Positions 51,329 through 64,000 of a stretch of 64,000 nt of DNA are shown piece by piece (position 1 is the first letter of the stretch; the number at the start of each line of letters is the position of its first letter). Origin of the DNA: an uncultured Chloroflexia bacterium (GTDB lineage: Bacteria; Chloroflexota; Limnocylindria; Limnocylindrales; CSP1-4); NCBI GenBank assembly GCA_963789905.1, contig CAWBMK010000007.1:780-64779 (forward strand). The letters run 5' to 3'. A program made the position numbers and the translations under genes. The notes beneath the pieces were generated by a model, which saw nothing but the letters and a program-made list of their open reading frames with translations, was not told the DNA's origin and made no database searches.

Positions 51329-52261
51329 TCAGAAACCGACCCGGTGTTGGCCTTTCAGAGCAAGCCGAGCTCGCGTCTCAGTGGGCGTCGCGACCTCGAG
51401 AGACAGCTCGCCCAGGATCCTGCGAATGCGCGCCACCTGGTCGGCGTTGGAGCGGGCGAGCTCGCCGCGACCGAGCCAGATGCTGTCCTCGAGCCCGACC
51501 CGGACGTTCCCGCCCATGGCCGCGGCGACGGTGATGAACGGCATCTGGTGGCGTCCCGCCGCGAGTACCGACCACTCGTAGTCGTCGCCGAAGAGCCGGT
51601 CGGCGATCCGGCGCATGTGGACGAGATTGTCGATGTCGGCTCCGATCCCGCCGAGGATGCCGAAGATCGTCTGGACGAAGAGCGGTGGCTTGACCAGCTC
51701 GCGATCGAGGAAGTGGGCGAGGGTGTAGAGATGCCCGACGTCGTAGCACTCGAACTCGAAGCGCGTGCCGTGCCCTTCGCCGAGGTCACGGAGCACCGAC
51801 TCGATGTCCTTGAAGGTGTTCTTGAAGATCAGATCGCGTGAGCCTTCGAGGTACGGCTGCTCCCATGGATGCTTCCACGAGTCGTAGCGGTCAAGCATGT
51901 GATAGAGCCCGAAGTTCATCGAGCCCATGTTGAGGGTCGCGATCTCGGGGCTTGCTCGGCGGGCACCCGCAAGCCGGTCGTCGAACGACATCGTGGCCGA
52001 CCCGCCCGTCGTGATGTTGATGACGGCATCGGTCCGCTCGTGGATGACCGGCAGGAACTGCATGAAGACCTCGGGATCGGCGGTCGGATGGCCGTCGATC
52101 GCGTCCCGTGCGTGGAGATGGAGGATCGAGGCCCCCGCCTCGGCGGCGGCGACGGCCTCGATGGCGATCTCCTCGGGCGTGATCGGGAGATACGGCGTCA
52201 TGGTCGGGGTGTGGATCGATCCGGTGATCGCGCAGGTGATGATCACGGGTCGCGACGGCAT
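51329..52261 (-). CDS. Beta-keto acid cleavage enzyme family (BKACE/Kce, DUF849)
   Basis: IITCAITG, ILHLHARD, EIATLNMGS, FEFECYDVGH, GNVRVGLED. Confidence 0.92.
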   Translation of the reverse strand: MPSRPVIITCAITGSIHTPTMTPYLPITPEEIAIEAVAAAEAGASILHLHARDAIDGHPTADPEVFMQFLPVIHERTDAVINITTGGSATMSFDDRLAGARRASPEIATLNMGSMNFGLYHMLDRYDSWKHPWEQPYLEGSRDLIFKNTFKDIESVLRDLGEGHGTRFEFECYDVGHLYTLAHFLDRELVKPPLFVQTIFGILGGIGADIDNLVHMRRIADRLFGDDYEWSVLAAGRHQMPFITVAAAMGGNVRVGLEDSIWLGRGELARSNADQVARIRRILGELSLEVATPTETRARLALKGQHRVGF

Positions 52262-52291
52262 CGTCAGCTCCTCTCCGGGTCGCTCGGGCAG

Positions 52292-53512
52292 TCAGGCGGC
52301 CGCGACGTCCGCCAGCGCGGTGCCGATCCGGTCGACCGCCGAATCGACGATCGCCGCATCGGTGATGGTCGACGTGCAGAGCATCCCGCGAGGGGCGAAG
52401 AAAGCGCCGTGATTGAGAGCGGCGAGGTGGAAGTTGGCCTGCGCGGGTGAATCGGGCAGGGTGATCCCGAGGAGCGACCCGACACGCCGGATGACGATCG
52501 GGATGCTGGCCGCATCGGCGGCTGCCTGGATGCCATCGGCCAAGCGTTCGGTCAGCCGTGCCATGACCTCGATGCGTTCGGCCGTCAGGGCGCGGACGGA
52601 GGCCAGGCCGGCCGCCGCGGTCATCGGATTCCCGTTGAACGTTCCCGAATGGGTCGCCTTGCCGGTGCGCGGATCCAGCAGGCCGAGCAGGTCGGCGCGA
52701 CCACCGACGCCACCGACAGGCAGGCCACCACCGATGATCTTGCCCATCGTCGTCAGATCGGGAACGATGCCGTGGCGCGACTGGGCGCCACCGGGGGCCA
52801 GGCGGAGGGCGATGACCTCGTCGAGGATGAAGATGGCGCCCGCCTGTCGCGCGGCCGCATGAACACCGGCCAGGAACCCTGGCGGGGCATCGACGATCCC
52901 ACCTGAGCCCAGAACCGGTTCGAGGATCACGGCTGCGATCTCGTCACCGCGTTCGGCCAGGATCGCCTCGAAGGCACCCAGGTCGCCGAACGGCGCGATG
53001 AGCGTCGTCGGTCCCTCGTGGCCGTGCGTGCCGACCTCCGTTTCCTCGGCAGATCCGTGATACCCGAACCGGGCCATGAGGATCTTGGATCGGCCGGTGG
53101 CCAGCCTCGCGATCTGGATCGCGACGAGATTCGCCTCCGTCCCTGAGTTCGTGAACCGGACGCGTTCGACGGAACCGACCCGCTCGACGAGCATCTCCGC
53201 GAGCTCGAGCTGGGGCAGGTTTCGGGCGGCGAAGGCGGAGCCGTGCGCGACCTGCCTGGAGACGGCTTCGACGATGGCTGGATAGGCGTGCCCGTGGGCG
53301 AGGCTCGTGTAGTTCATGATGAGATCGAGATAGCGGTTGCCGTCGACGTCGACGATCTCGTGGCCCTGGCCCTCCGCGATCGTGAGGGGGTATGGCTCGT
53401 GGTAGGTAGCAGAGCGGGTATCACCGCCGGGCATGACGGCCTCGGCCCGGATCGCCAGGGACGCCGACCCCGGAGTCCGAGCCCGATACGTTGCCTCGAT
53501 GCCGTCGATCAT
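52292..53512 (-). CDS. Class III aminotransferase (GSA-aminomutase-like)
   Basis: DVDGNRYLD, RFTNSGTEA, ILDEVI, GKIIGGGLP, GTFNGNP. Confidence 0.88.
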   Translation of the reverse strand: MIDGIEATYRARTPGSASLAIRAEAVMPGGDTRSATYHEPYPLTIAEGQGHEIVDVDGNRYLDLIMNYTSLAHGHAYPAIVEAVSRQVAHGSAFAARNLPQLELAEMLVERVGSVERVRFTNSGTEANLVAIQIARLATGRSKILMARFGYHGSAEETEVGTHGHEGPTTLIAPFGDLGAFEAILAERGDEIAAVILEPVLGSGGIVDAPPGFLAGVHAAARQAGAIFILDEVIALRLAPGGAQSRHGIVPDLTTMGKIIGGGLPVGGVGGRADLLGLLDPRTGKATHSGTFNGNPMTAAAGLASVRALTAERIEVMARLTERLADGIQAAADAASIPIVIRRVGSLLGITLPDSPAQANFHLAALNHGAFFAPRGMLCTSTITDAAIVDSAVDRIGTALADVAAA

Positions 53513-53556
53513 CCGATCTACTCCTCGCTAGGCCATGGGTGGGCGGGTCGATTGGC

Positions 53557-54525
53557 TCATCGCGTCGTGTCCGGGCCGCTGGCGATGATGGCATCGAGCT
53601 CTGTGCGCGTCGGCAATCCTGTCATGTCGCCGATCGTCGCGGCGACCGACGCGCCGGCAGCATTGCCCCAGGCGAGGGCCGTCGCCAGCTCATGCCCCTC
53701 GAGCCGGGCGGCGATGAAGCCGGCCACGAAGGCGTCGCCTGCCCCGACCGGATCGAGGACGAGGGGCACGACGAAACCCTCGTGCATGGCGCCGGGCTGA
53801 TCGCGCTCGCGAGCGAGGGCGCCCGCCTCGCCCAGCTTGAGGACCGCGAGCGATGGCCCGAGATCCAGGAGGCCGCGGGCCACGTCGCTCATCGAGCCGC
53901 CGGTCGCGCCGATGAGGATGACGGCCTCATCGAGGCCTGCGAACAGGACATCGCTGCGAGTGGCGATCTCCTGGAGCACGGGTCGGGCCTCCTCCTCGCT
54001 CCACAGCTTGCGCCGCATGTTGACGTCGAAGCTGATGGTCATTCCGATCCCGCGCGCACGACCGATCGCCGCGTCCACAGCCGCGCGACTTGACGGGGAC
54101 AGAGCAGGCGTGATCCCGGTGACGTGCAGCCAGCCGCCAGCGGAGAATCCAGCGGCGGTCGCCTCCACGTCGGTGGGATCGAGTCGCGATCCAGCGGACC
54201 CGGTCCGGTGGTAGGTGAGGTCGGCCGCTCCGACGAGTCGCCGCTCACGGACGAAGACTGCGGTCCGTGCATCGCCGTCGATCCGGAGGCCGCCGACGTC
54301 AACGCCCTCGCCGCGGAGACGACGCAGGATCGCCGTGCCGAATCCGTCGGCGCCGACGCGTCCGATGAACGCCGCCCGGTGGCCGAGGCGGGCAAGTCCG
54401 ACCGCGACGTTCGCTTCGGCTCCGGCCACATGGCGCTCGAAGCGGGTGGCATCGGCCAGTGGTCCGACCTCGGACGCGACCAGCCCGACCATGGCCTCAC
54501 CAAGCGTGACCACCTCGATGGACAT
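53557..54525 (-). CDS. PfkB family carbohydrate kinase (KdgK-like)
   Basis: LGEAMV, AGAEANVA, FDVNMR, DPVGAGDAF. Confidence 0.9.
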   Translation of the reverse strand: MSIEVVTLGEAMVGLVASEVGPLADATRFERHVAGAEANVAVGLARLGHRAAFIGRVGADGFGTAILRRLRGEGVDVGGLRIDGDARTAVFVRERRLVGAADLTYHRTGSAGSRLDPTDVEATAAGFSAGGWLHVTGITPALSPSSRAAVDAAIGRARGIGMTISFDVNMRRKLWSEEEARPVLQEIATRSDVLFAGLDEAVILIGATGGSMSDVARGLLDLGPSLAVLKLGEAGALARERDQPGAMHEGFVVPLVLDPVGAGDAFVAGFIAARLEGHELATALAWGNAAGASVAATIGDMTGLPTRTELDAIIASGPDTTR

Positions 54526-54550
54526 GCCACGAGGATGCCATAGTCAGGTC

Positions 54551-55676
54551 ATGGGATTCACATACGACCTTTCCGCGGTGCGCTTCCACGACGACGATCC
54601 ATCGATGTGGCGATCGCGCGAGCTCCTGCCGGTGCCAGCCGATGCGGCGCTCGTGACCCTGGGCGAGGGCGGTACACCCCTGATTTCGGCAGGGATCGAC
54701 ACGGGCTGCCCCACCTGGTGGAAGGACGAGACCAGGAATCCGTCCGGCTCCCATAAGGACCGGGCTCTGTCCGTGTCCCTGACCGTTGCCAGGGCCGCCG
54801 GCGAGCTTTCAGTCGTCGTGGCCTCGGCCGGGAGCACGGCCCTCGCTGCCGCCACCTACGCCGGCCGGGCCGGCATTGCCTGCACGGTCGTCGTCGGGTC
54901 CGACGCGTCGGATGAGCGCCTGGTGCCCCTCGCGGTCCTGGGTGCTCGGGTACTGCGCGTCGACGGCTCGGTCGATGATGCTCTCGATCTCGTGGCCGAG
55001 GCATCCAGCGAGGTTGGCCTTCGCGATGTGTCGACCCGTCGATCCGGCGATCCGTGGGGCACCGAGGGCCCCAAGACGATCGCTCACGAGATCGTCCGCG
55101 ACATCGGCGTTCCGGACTGGGTCATCGTCCCGATCGGAGGCGGCGGAACGATCGCCGCGATCTGGCGCGGGTTTCGTCGAGCTCGTCGGGATGGGCCTGG
55201 CCGAGCGTCTACCGCGGATCGTCGGCCTCCAGCCGGTCGGCTACTCGACCCTCGTCACGGCCATGGAACGAGGTTGGACGTCGGATCAGGACCTTCGCGA
55301 TAACGCGCCCACGAGCCGACCACCGACCGTCCAGCTCAAGATCGCCCACACGGTGCCACCGGACGGCGCCGAAGCGCTGGCGGCCGTCCGCGAGTCGAAC
55401 GGGCTCATCCTTGCCACGTCCGATGACGAAGCCCTGGCCGGCGTCAAGGAGCTCGGCGCCCGCGAGGGTCTGTACGTCGAGCCGTCGTCCGGGATCGTCG
55501 TGTCCGCCGTGCGTCGGCTCGTCGCCGATGGCATCGTGGCCGCCGGCGACCGAGTCGTCGCCGTCGTCTGCGGCGGGGGCCATCGCGAGAGTGCGGCCAT
55601 TGCCGCGTCGCTGGGATCGCGACCGCGTGACGTCACGAGAGAGGAGCTCGGTCGCCTCCTGCGGTCCGGTTCGTAG
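54551..55676 (+). CDS. Threonine synthase-like PLP (fold type II) enzyme, frameshift ~55170
   Basis: LGEGGTPL, KDETRNPSGSHKDR, PIGGGG, EGLYVEPSSG. Confidence 0.82.
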
Positions 55677-62171: not shown

Positions 62172-64000
62172 TCAGGGTTCGGAAGGCGCAGCCTCCGAGA
62201 TCGGCGGTGGCAGTCCGCTGGGGACGGTCCCGTTGGCCGGCGCGAGGGTCGGCACGATACGGAGCGCGCCTTCGGGATCCGATGCGAAGGCAGCCAGGAC
62301 CGTACGCCACGTCGTCGCCACGACGCCAAGTAGCGGCACGACGATGAGCATGCCGGTGATCCCGGCCACAGCCGCGCCCGCCGGGATCGAGAGGAGGACG
62401 ATCGCCGGGTGGAGGTTGACGGCCTTGCCGTAGACCAGCGGGGCCACGAAGTTGCCCTGGACGATGTTGAAGACCAGGGTGAAGATCACCATCACCGCGA
62501 TCTGAGTCGGCGAGCCGACGGCGATGGTCACGAGCAACGCGATGCCCGTCGTGATCAGGCTCCCGATGTAGGGGACGAAGCCGCCGAAGAATGACAGCAC
62601 CGCGAGAGGCAGGGCGAGCGGGATGCCGAGCACGAACATGATGAGCAGCTGCGTCGCTGCCCCGAACGCCGAGATGGCGGCCGTCCCGATCATGTAGCCG
62701 CTCAGGACACCGCTCGCCTGTGTGCCGGCGACATCGATATCCGCCCGAGGTCCCTTCGGCAGCCGACTGAGTGCCCAGCTCCAGATCTGCCCACCATCGC
62801 GCAGGAAGAAGAAACAGAGCAGTGCCGTGAGCACCATCCCGATGAGCAAGCTCATGACGCCTGCGAGTGCAGCCGTGGCGGCACCGGTTATCGCCCCGCT
62901 GAACGAGCCGGCAACTCCCCCCAGCCAGTCGAGGCTCGTGCCCCCGACGATCGAGCTCGCGCCACCTATTGCCGCGGCGGCGATCTCGCTCGACTGGCGG
63001 ATCAGGGACTCGATCGACAGCCACATGATGAGGGCCACCCCACCGAACGTCGCCCCGGTCGTGAGCCCGGCCGCGATGGTTCGGCTCTGACCGCGGCGCA
63101 GGAGCGCCGAAACGGCCGGCGCGAGGGTGGCCGCGACGAACGTTCCGAAGAGGGCCGGGATGAAGAGGATGGGCACGCTTGAGATCGCAGCGATCGCCAG
63201 GCCGGCGATGGCGAACGCGACGAGCAGGCGCCAGCTCCATTGGGCAACGCGATCGAGCCAGCCCGGCACGAGCGTGTCCCGCTGCTCGGCCGGTCCCGGA
63301 TCGAGTGCGGATATGACAGCTCCGTTCACGGCCACGAACATCGCCACGATCGGGATGACGATGAACACGCCGGCAAGCCCGCAAGGGAGGCGCCGATGGG
63401 CAGGGCAACAAGAACCAGGGCCGGGTGGATGCTGGCGTTCCGGCCGGCCGTCATCGGGCTGAGGAACCTCGCTTGGACCACCTTGACGGCAACGATGAGC
63501 CCGACGAGGGCAACGACCGCAGTCACCCCGCTCGCGGCCCAGGTCGCGATCACGAGGACACCCGCCGCGATGATCGGCCCGAAGTACGGGATGAACCCGA
63601 GCATGAACACGAGGACGGCGAGCGGCCCGGCGAGAGGTACGCCGAGGAGGACGAGGAAGACCAGGTCCGACAGGGAGTCGATGCTCGCGACGATCGCGGC
63701 GCCCCTGAAGTAACGACCGACCCGGCCAAGTGCATCCCTGCCCGCCGCGGTGAGCTCGCCGCGCTTTTCGGCCGGCGCGACTCCGATCGCCCAGGCCCAG
63801 GCCTTGTCGCCGTCGAGAAGGAGGAAGAACGTCGTGAACAGCGACAGGATCGCGATCGAGAACGCGTTGGCGATCGAGCCGACGATCGCCCCGCCCGTCG
63901 CTGATATCGACGACTTGATTTGGGCAGTTGTCTGCGCGAGGGCATCCGATGACGCGGGCGGCACTCCGGCCCTGGCCAGTTCCTCGCGCACCTTGTCGAG
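62172..64000 (-). CDS. AI-2E family transporter with two tandem domains, frameshift ~63375, 5' end outside window
   Basis: Two PerM-like units (FIPYFGP..SIHPALVL and FVPYIGS..NLHPAIVL). Confidence 0.8.
   Translation of the reverse strand, partial: RQGARGTGQGRSAARVIGCPRADNCPNQVVDISDGRGDRRLDRQRVLDRDPVAVHDVLPPSRRRQGLGLGDRSRAGRKARRAHRGGQGCTWPGRSLLQGRRDRREHRLPVGPGLPRPPRRTSRRAARRPRVHARVHPVLRADHRGGCPRDRDLGRERGDCGRCPRRAHRCRQGGPSEVPQPDDGRPERQHPPGPGSCCPAHRRLPCGLAGVFIVIPIVAMFVAVNGAVISALDPGPAEQRDTLVPGWLDRVAQWSWRLLVAFAIAGLAIAAISSVPILFIPALFGTFVAATLAPAVSALLRRGQSRTIAAGLTTGATFGGVALIMWLSIESLIRQSSEIAAAAIGGASSIVGGTSLDWLGGVAGSFSGAITGAATAALAGVMSLLIGMVLTALLCFFFLRDGGQIWSWALSRLPKGPRADIDVAGTQASGVLSGYMIGTAAISAFGAATQLLIMFVLGIPLALPLAVLSFFGGFVPYIGSLITTGIALLVTIAVGSPTQIAVMVIFTLVFNIVQGNFVAPLVYGKAVNLHPAIVLLSIPAGAAVAGITGMLIVVPLLGVVATTWRTVLAAFASDPEGALRIVPTLAPANGTVPSGLPPPISEAAPSEP

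Follow-up and report, generated by a model that had tools for sequence, protein, structure and literature searches.

The window analyzed here, a stretch of 64,000 nucleotides (nt) from an uncultured Chloroflexia bacterium (GenBank assembly GCA_963789905.1, contig CAWBMK010000007.1, positions 780 to 64,779 of the forward strand), comes from a genome that is 94.7% complete in a 7-contig assembly. It contains a block of four genes for a PfkB kinase, a class III aminotransferase, a BKACE, and a paralogue of the threonine synthase (ThrC) family, here called ThrC-like. In a preliminary description of this DNA the four genes had been joined into a single catabolic pathway. We instead read the block, tentatively, as a composite of a conserved three-gene module and an added BKACE. 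The four open reading frames and their family assignments were borne out by profile searches and are listed here with the features needed below.

51329-52261, minus strand: BKACE, 310 amino acids (PF05853, 353.8 bits)
52292-53512, minus strand: class III aminotransferase, 406 amino acids (PF00202, 203.8 bits)
53557-54525, minus strand: PfkB kinase, 322 amino acids (PF00294, 168.4 bits)
54526-54550, no strand: divergent spacer of 25 nt between the starts of the ThrC-like and PfkB genes
54551-55676, plus strand: ThrC-like gene (ThrC-family paralogue, PALP domain), 374 amino acids if read through a +1 frameshift
55169-55171, plus strand: GGG run that is the frameshift site, with one G too many by DNA alignment with loci L110, L111, L115, and L116
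49938-51155, minus strand: amt (TIGR00836, 446.7 bits)

The three minus-strand genes are co-oriented, as had been described, with gaps of 44 nt between the kinase and aminotransferase genes and 30 nt between the aminotransferase and BKACE genes, and good Shine-Dalgarno sequences stand ahead of both the aminotransferase and the BKACE genes. The amt gene follows 173 nt past BKACE and is itself followed by gltB, with four glutamate synthase domains. By coordinate, the block opens with BKACE and not with the kinase; the kinase-first order in the title of the preliminary description is the order of transcription. The G+C content across the region is approximately 66 to 71%. A scan of the locus for promoters and terminators gave no useful result, and the ESM Atlas returned generic names only.

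Two metagenomic loci that were found via the kinase, L110 and L111, carry three of the four genes. Their kinases are 71 to 74% identical and their aminotransferases 79% identical to those of the window, and both possess an intact ThrC-like gene encoding 374 to 376 amino acids. The kinase and aminotransferase genes overlap in these loci, by 4 and 1 nt, and no BKACE gene follows the aminotransferase gene in either locus. At the DNA level, both loci are 74% identical to the window exactly from the ThrC-like gene to the stop codon of the aminotransferase gene and no further on that side. The neighbors beyond the block differ: one flank carries heme oxygenase or TadE, the opposite flank Zip, LacI, or BKACE. 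Insertions and breakpoints fall only outside the ThrC-like, kinase, and aminotransferase genes. The divergent spacer is 25 to 26 nt long in the window (54526-54550), L110 (7975-8000), and L111 (2496-2520), and a 17-nt core within it, CGAGGATGCCATAGTCA, is identical in all three, whereas the surrounding DNA is only 74% identical. This core probably serves as an operator common to both genes or as two leaderless promoters placed back to back, and PfkB is probably translated from a leaderless transcript.

A closer relative, L179, was the only close match in a metagenome scan with the aminotransferase and is 80% identical to the window at the nucleotide level. It contains the 3' half of the aminotransferase gene (78%) followed by a BKACE gene (90% identical), and its contig ends 181 nt past BKACE. 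The amt gene is not near the block in L110 or L111, so that the linkage to amt-gltB drawn in the preliminary description is absent there, and no relative was found with all four genes or with the amt-gltB link. The test that had been set for the grouping, that the genes be conserved together in other genomes, thus came out half in its favor: the ThrC-like, kinase, and aminotransferase genes are kept together in L110 and L111, and BKACE is missing from both. From these alignments, the stable unit appears to consist of the ThrC-like, kinase, and aminotransferase genes, with BKACE a later addition in one sub-lineage and the amt-gltB link not conserved.

More distant homologues occur in other surroundings. 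Among the 80 best aminotransferase homologues in species-representative genomes (34 to 56% identity), neither PfkB nor a member of the ThrC-like subfamily was found within 10 kb, no common neighbor was evident, and a BKACE (29% identity) was near the aminotransferase in 1 locus (L076). The best PfkB homologue in the phylum sample was 47% identical, and in 15 same-family genomes no match reached E <= 1e-70. No ThrC-like orthologue was found in 40 relatives, where the best match (44%) was the housekeeping thrC. Since the genes of the unit lack orthologues in the other genomes of the family and the best aminotransferase in species-representative genomes is only 56% identical, the distribution points to acquisition of the three-gene unit by transfer.

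In a number of Dormibacterota-type loci (L017, L019, L122, L123, L126, L128, L129, L135, and L141), a homologue of the aminotransferase (41 to 44% identity) is divergent from a thrC-family gene whose product carries GSFKARG, SAGNAG, and GGGTG; L017 and L019 belong to the 80 loci above. These motifs are near-identical across the loci, which probably represent one lineage. We rejected this arrangement as support for the unit because the ThrC is of a different type (GSFKARG, GGGTG).

An orthologue of BKACE (73 to 74%) was present in only 2 of the 40 relatives, in one of them broken, and neither PfkB, ThrC-like, nor a close aminotransferase was nearby. A survey of the phylum recovered BKACE homologues in 16 of 400 genomes, none with a cluster partner within 1.5 kb, and in 17 same-phylum BKACE genomes that were checked (these 16 and G013) no aminotransferase, PfkB, or ThrC-like gene stood beside BKACE. 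The 18th, G012, has a broken BKACE and only a 30%-identical aminotransferase approximately 8 kb away. This broken orthologue (L012, G012:C1, 9317-10241; 70 to 74%), from a genome of the same family, lies in three frames with an in-frame TAG, and its neighbors are genes for a 3-hydroxyacyl-CoA dehydrogenase and hydantoinase B.

The ThrC-like gene had been described as divergent, which is true of both its orientation and its sequence (TIGR00260, 146 against a cutoff of 167 bits), but it is not one open reading frame in this assembly. Positions 1 to 183 of the PALP profile match frame A (open reading frame 54215-55303, in which the real start is the ATG at 54551), and positions 177 to 295 match frame B (54786-55676). 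The reading frame is interrupted by a +1 frameshift at 55169-55171, where the window reads CGC GGG TTT C and L110, L111, L115, and L116 read CGC, CGG, or CGA followed by GGx TTC, with GG and hence one base fewer. The read-through product (P0003) has 374 amino acids, and the close ThrC-like homologues in the protein collection (71 to 77% identity) are all intact at 373 to 385 amino acids. A gene for an AI-2E transporter (62262-63997, minus strand) is similarly split into two frames near position 63376; it lacks 1 nt compared with its counterpart in L110, which is one open reading frame of 722 amino acids. Since two single-base breaks lie within 9 kb (approximately 8 kb apart) and the homologues are intact, the break in the ThrC-like gene is probably an assembly indel rather than the mark of a true pseudogene.

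The read-through ThrC-like protein scores 146.2 bits against TIGR00260, under the cutoff of 167.1, and its nearest solved structures are class I threonine synthases (e.g., 2D1F and 1UIM) at 148 to 180 bits. Its motifs are GSHKDR, SAGST, DPWG, and GGGGT, compared to GSFKDR, STGNT, NPxR, and GNAGN in class I enzymes. In a census of 120 homologues, extending down to 42% identity, GSFKDR was found in none and GS(H/Q)KDR stood in its place; the Asn of STGNT was also kept in none, the sequence being of the SxGSx type; GGGGT stood in place of GNAGN in 112; and the Arg of NPxR was replaced. Because the same replacements run throughout the 120 homologues, ThrC-like is, by its motifs, a distinct and consistent subfamily of ThrC that is uncharacterized. 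In Thermus thermophilus structures the class I loops bind substrate and phosphate, and class II ThrC enzymes also depart from class I at some of these loops. A loss of phosphate binding in the subfamily is possible, and since the class I active-site loops are missing, the phosphate elimination that had been ascribed to the ThrC-like enzyme is not safe to infer. A literature search on the subfamily and on the roles of ThrC residues found nothing usable.

Canonical thrC and thrB are present together elsewhere in the genome, and there is a second thrC just past the edge of the window. With these genes present and the kinase being of another type (see below), we rejected the possibility that the kinase, aminotransferase, and ThrC-like enzyme form an alternative threonine route. 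The subfamily is rare: it was found in 1 of 400 genomes of its own phylum and in 0 of 400 genomes of a second phylum, in which only 4 candidates per genome were scored, and both samples were too sparse for a neighborhood census. Its context was readable in the following loci. In L116, a ThrC-like gene (approximately 60% identity) stands beside genes for Eda, the 2-keto-3-deoxy-6-phosphogluconate (KDPG) aldolase, and a PfkB kinase (53%); in L199, it is accompanied by an RpiR regulator, a short-chain dehydrogenase/reductase (SDR), an M20 amidohydrolase, and a sugar ABC transporter; in L202, by a sugar-binding protein and M20; in L203 and G404, by a sugar-binding protein and a GFO/IDH oxidoreductase; and in L205, by a GntR/FCD regulator near a lactonase. 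In two further loci it is alone. This recurrent sugar-acid setting suggests that ThrC-like may be a pyridoxal phosphate (PLP)-dependent lyase whose substrate is an amino-aldonate, free or phosphorylated.

The kinase has the fold, the GxGD anion hole, and the catalytic Asp of the PfkB family (GAGD motif at residue 261; PF00294, 168.4 bits). Its best model is NF040938, for kinases of 2-keto-3-deoxygluconate (KDG) and 2-keto-3-deoxygalactonate (KDGal), with 218 bits, under the cutoff of 400, and it matches the KDG kinase structure 1V19 with 179 bits. A 59% identical kinase (P0020, locus L114) is in an operon with KDPG aldolase, and the 53% identical kinase of L116 is in a similar setting. The window's enzyme thus appears to be KDG-kinase-like, of the type that acts on keto-deoxy sugar acids, and not the hydroxy-amino acid kinase that had been envisaged. 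No second PfkB kinase of the KDG type was found in the genome, and the PfkB homologues in the phylum (45 to 47%) had no gene for Eda, aminotransferase, BKACE, ThrC-like, M20, SDR, GFO/IDH, or RpiR within 1.5 kb. The operon in L114 (7348-10264) comprises KDPG aldolase, the PfkB kinase (59%), and an overlapping gene for a class V, kynureninase-like PLP enzyme, followed by a lactonase, an MR/MLE dehydratase, and a galactokinase; it is another case of a KDG kinase coupled to a PLP enzyme.

For the aminotransferase, the best solved relatives are 6K8H (273 bits) and then 4AO9 (247 bits) and 2YKU. The equivalents of R36, N70, K282, and T317 of 6K8H are kept, R36 being the Arg of PGGxxR and K282 the PLP Lys. 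In 6K8H, R36 was suggested to bind the carboxylate, and the enzyme accepts aromatic, branched, and aliphatic beta-amino acids as well as a gamma-amino acid (PMC10589169). By similarity and by these residues, the aminotransferase is predicted to be of the beta/omega-transaminase type. Two other assignments were considered and dropped. It is not HemL, since it scores 279 bits against TIGR00713 (cutoff, 527) and 292 bits against PRK00062 (cutoff, 398) and two better HemL-like genes lie elsewhere (G000:C7:354318-355583 and G000:C1:1758220-1759491); nor is it a phospho-lyase, given that 5G4I matches with only 113 bits versus 273 bits for the omega-transaminase. The two best HemL-like genes of the genome are themselves under the TIGR00713 cutoff (377 bits versus 527).

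BKACE matches PF05853 over profile positions 1 to 274, far above the cutoff of 24.8 bits, and passes the NCBIfam equivalog NF053538 (3,5-dioxohexanoate:acetyl-CoA acetone transferase) with 521.3 bits against a cutoff of 430. Its best matches in the PDB are 3E02 (462 bits) and 8RIO, the BKACE15 of Paracoccus (397 bits). In the alignment to 8RIO, the equivalents of HxH, E171, and R254 are kept (LHLHAR, FEFECYD, and VRVGLED). The zinc ligands we take to be those of the Kce structure. The roles of the catalytic Glu (E171) and of R254 were described for BKACE15, and close homologues take beta-ketopentanoate, beta-ketohexanoate, 3,5-dioxohexanoate, and 5-hydroxy-beta-ketohexanoate (PMC11961710); the activity modeled by NF053538 was shown for the triacetate acetoacetate-lyase (TAL) of Clostridium scatologenes (PMC10470551). 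BKACE is assigned here to the type for triacetate and neutral C5-C6 beta-keto acids. A role as a marker of phloroglucinol degradation was rejected, since a search for the PF04199 cyclase (cyclase-family DPGC), the only phloroglucinol partner looked for, found none in the genome.

BKACE and the aminotransferase also meet outside this lineage. Within 10 kb of the aminotransferase homologue, BKACE was found in 5 further loci out of 159 (L076, L172, L174, L181, and L185, from unrelated lineages), against 0.1 to 1.1 loci expected by chance from 2.26 Mb of flanking DNA and an assumed density of 0.05 to 0.5 BKACE per Mb, which is a rough estimate rather than a formal test. In L076, BKACE is directly adjacent to the aminotransferase homologue in the same operon. 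The co-directional set at this locus, from an alphaproteobacterial metagenome-assembled genome (6949-14516), encodes a thiamine pyrophosphate enzyme, the aminotransferase homologue, BKACE, a PLP decarboxylase, and a solute-binding protein, and is a candidate beta-amino-acid operon. Beta-keto acids are unstable and decarboxylate readily (PMC10589169), and a BKACE that follows a beta-amino-acid transaminase would save their carbon as acetoacetate and acyl-CoA. Activation of the acetoacetate could fall to CoA-transferase subunits that are encoded in this genome.

The reading that we prefer, and to which we would give somewhat less than an even chance, is that the locus is composite: a transferred three-gene module for an amino acid or amino-sugar acid under a shared control region, with an add-on BKACE that works with the transaminase. 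A narrow lineage would have acquired a ThrC-like gene divergent from the gene for a KDG-kinase-like PfkB and a translationally linked aminotransferase gene, the two transcription units would share the 25-nt control region, and a triacetate-type BKACE would have been added directly after the aminotransferase gene in this genome and its closest sampled relative. An aminated sugar acid, or an amino acid related to one, may be the source from which the unit draws nitrogen and carbon. ThrC-like would be a PLP lyase that takes a 2-amino-(deoxy)aldonate, or the phosphate ester of one, to ammonia and a 2-keto-3-deoxy acid; PfkB would phosphorylate either this KDG-type acid or the amino compound that precedes it; the aminotransferase would move a non-alpha amino group to a keto-acid acceptor, giving an unstable beta-keto acid; and BKACE, where present, would capture this with acetyl-CoA to form acetoacetate and an acyl-CoA. 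The general idea put forward earlier, a catabolic unit that yields nitrogen from an amino acid or amino-sugar acid, agrees with the settings in which the kinase and the ThrC-like subfamily are found; as a unit, the four-step pathway attached to it was unsupported.

Several observations weigh against this composite reading. No chemistry connects a KDG-type kinase step with a beta-amino-acid transaminase step, and the cluster is without a transporter or regulator. KDPG aldolase (PF01081) was not found in the genome, which bears on what would become of a KDG-type product once phosphorylated. No substrate is established for members of the ThrC-like subfamily, and its sugar-acid contexts amount to only about six types; were the frameshift real, the ThrC-like step would be lost in this genome. 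Conservation of the block does not reach past fairly close relatives (71 to 81% amino acid identity), and the synteny between L110 and the window continues on the side of Tad and AI-2E, from AI-2E to TadE. Because the block is inside this longer synteny, shared ancestry accounts for part of its conservation. A bolder form of the composite reading, which we regard as doubtful, holds that the ThrC-like subfamily is a new PLP lyase for amino-sugar acids, which would be either the glucosaminate ammonia-lyase that is still unassigned or a counterpart of DgaE without homology to it, and that it feeds a KDG-type kinase, and that the aminotransferase and BKACE form a CoA-dependent trap for unstable beta-keto acids from beta-amino acids, the two parts being joined under the 25-nt control region.

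An unlikely explanation is that the genes share no pathway and that history alone has made neighbors of an ordinary KDG kinase, a general-purpose omega-transaminase, a BKACE with a separate role, and a ThrC paralogue in decay. In its favor are the extension of the L110 synteny well past the block, the broken ThrC-like gene in this assembly, the lack of a common neighbor among the 80 best aminotransferase homologues, and the unrelated contexts of BKACE orthologues in relatives (e.g., 3-hydroxyacyl-CoA dehydrogenase or HD-domain genes). It does less well with the overlap of the kinase and aminotransferase genes in L110 and L111, with the sharp boundaries of the block in three lineages, and with the identical 17-nt core of the divergent spacer, which argues for joint control; moreover, linkage of ThrC-like to PfkB is seen again in L116 at approximately 60% and 53% identity, and proximity of the aminotransferase to BKACE is more common than the rough chance estimate. 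The single linear pathway of the preliminary description, in which PfkB phosphorylates a hydroxy-amino acid, ThrC-like eliminates the phosphate, the aminotransferase and BKACE complete the route, and nitrogen passes to Amt and GltB, we consider improbable. The ThrC family is known for phosphate elimination, the four genes lie next to one another with little space between them, and the ThrC-like subfamily stands beside PfkB twice, here and in L116. However, the loci that keep the other three genes have no BKACE, conservation does not extend to the amt-gltB link, and the kinase has 59% identity to KDG kinases linked to Eda and is unlike known amino acid kinases. In addition, the ThrC-like subfamily is without the STGNT, GNAGN, and NPxR loops of its nearest relatives, the class I ThrCs, the BKACE subgroup prefers neutral C5-C6 beta-keto acids, and the genome already has canonical thrC and thrB elsewhere.

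The least probable of the explanations, and one that we would be surprised to see borne out, makes the aminotransferase a stereo-inverting D-amino-acid transaminase that converts a 2-amino-aldonate to a 2-keto-aldonate, with PfkB phosphorylating this product in the manner of a 2-ketogluconate kinase and the ThrC-like lyase providing a parallel, deaminating entry. The PfkB family does include 2-ketogluconate kinases, the aminotransferase has D-phenylglycine aminotransferases among its solved relatives (188 bits), and L110 has a LacI-type regulator and a 2-hydroxyacid dehydrogenase 2 to 5 kb from the block. The aminotransferase is nevertheless nearer to the beta/omega-transaminases (273 and 247 bits) than to the D-phenylglycine enzymes, neither the window nor L111 has the LacI and dehydrogenase genes, and BKACE is left unexplained.

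Each part of this locus is a member of a known family; what is uncharacterized is their arrangement, together with the ThrC subfamily. If the composite reading is correct, it would provide a testable function for a rare, unannotated branch of the ThrC family that databases label "threonine synthase" and a two-enzyme route to the use of beta-amino acids, via a transaminase and then a BKACE. The latter pairing would be of interest for biocatalysis because the instability of beta-keto acids limits transaminase processes. For annotation, the four-gene "cluster" should not be propagated as one pathway, and the ThrC-like gene call in this genome is broken by a probable assembly error.

Each part of the locus can be set beside a known system. 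With class I threonine synthases, ThrC-like shares the fold family and the PLP-lysine motif GSxKDR; it differs in scoring under the TIGR00260 cutoff, in carrying GS(H/Q)KDR, SxGSx, and GGGGT, and in the replacement of the Arg of NPxR. DgaE is a fold-type I enzyme, and it is not homologous to ThrC-like, which is of fold-type II and the ThrC family. The DgaE route, a known precedent, is one in which a PLP lyase converts glucosaminate-6-phosphate to KDPG with the release of ammonia (PMC9529869, PMC12343721). The lyase logic would be the same here, and the set in L116 (ThrC-like, Eda, and PfkB) would be analogous, with the analogy itself inferred. The KdgK-Eda modules resemble the window in that its kinase is nearest to KDG kinases (1V19 and NF040938) and is 53 to 59% identical to Eda-linked kinases, but the kinase is under the equivalog cutoff, Eda was not found in the genome, and the next gene encodes an aminotransferase and not an aldolase. 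StoTA of Sphaerobacter thermophilus (6K8H) and the beta-transaminases 4AO9 and 2YKU have the Arg of PGGxxR, the PLP Lys, and the T317 equivalent in common with the aminotransferase, which is approximately 45 residues shorter and is coupled to a sugar-acid kinase. Finally, TAL of the phloroglucinol pathway and BKACE15 of Paracoccus denitrificans (8RIO, 8RIP, and 9HNF) belong to the same subfamily and 310-amino-acid length class as BKACE, with the same zinc ligands, E171, and R254; compared to the TAL pathway, no cyclase-family DPGC was found in the genome, no dehydrogenase is adjacent, and BKACE instead has an aminotransferase upstream.

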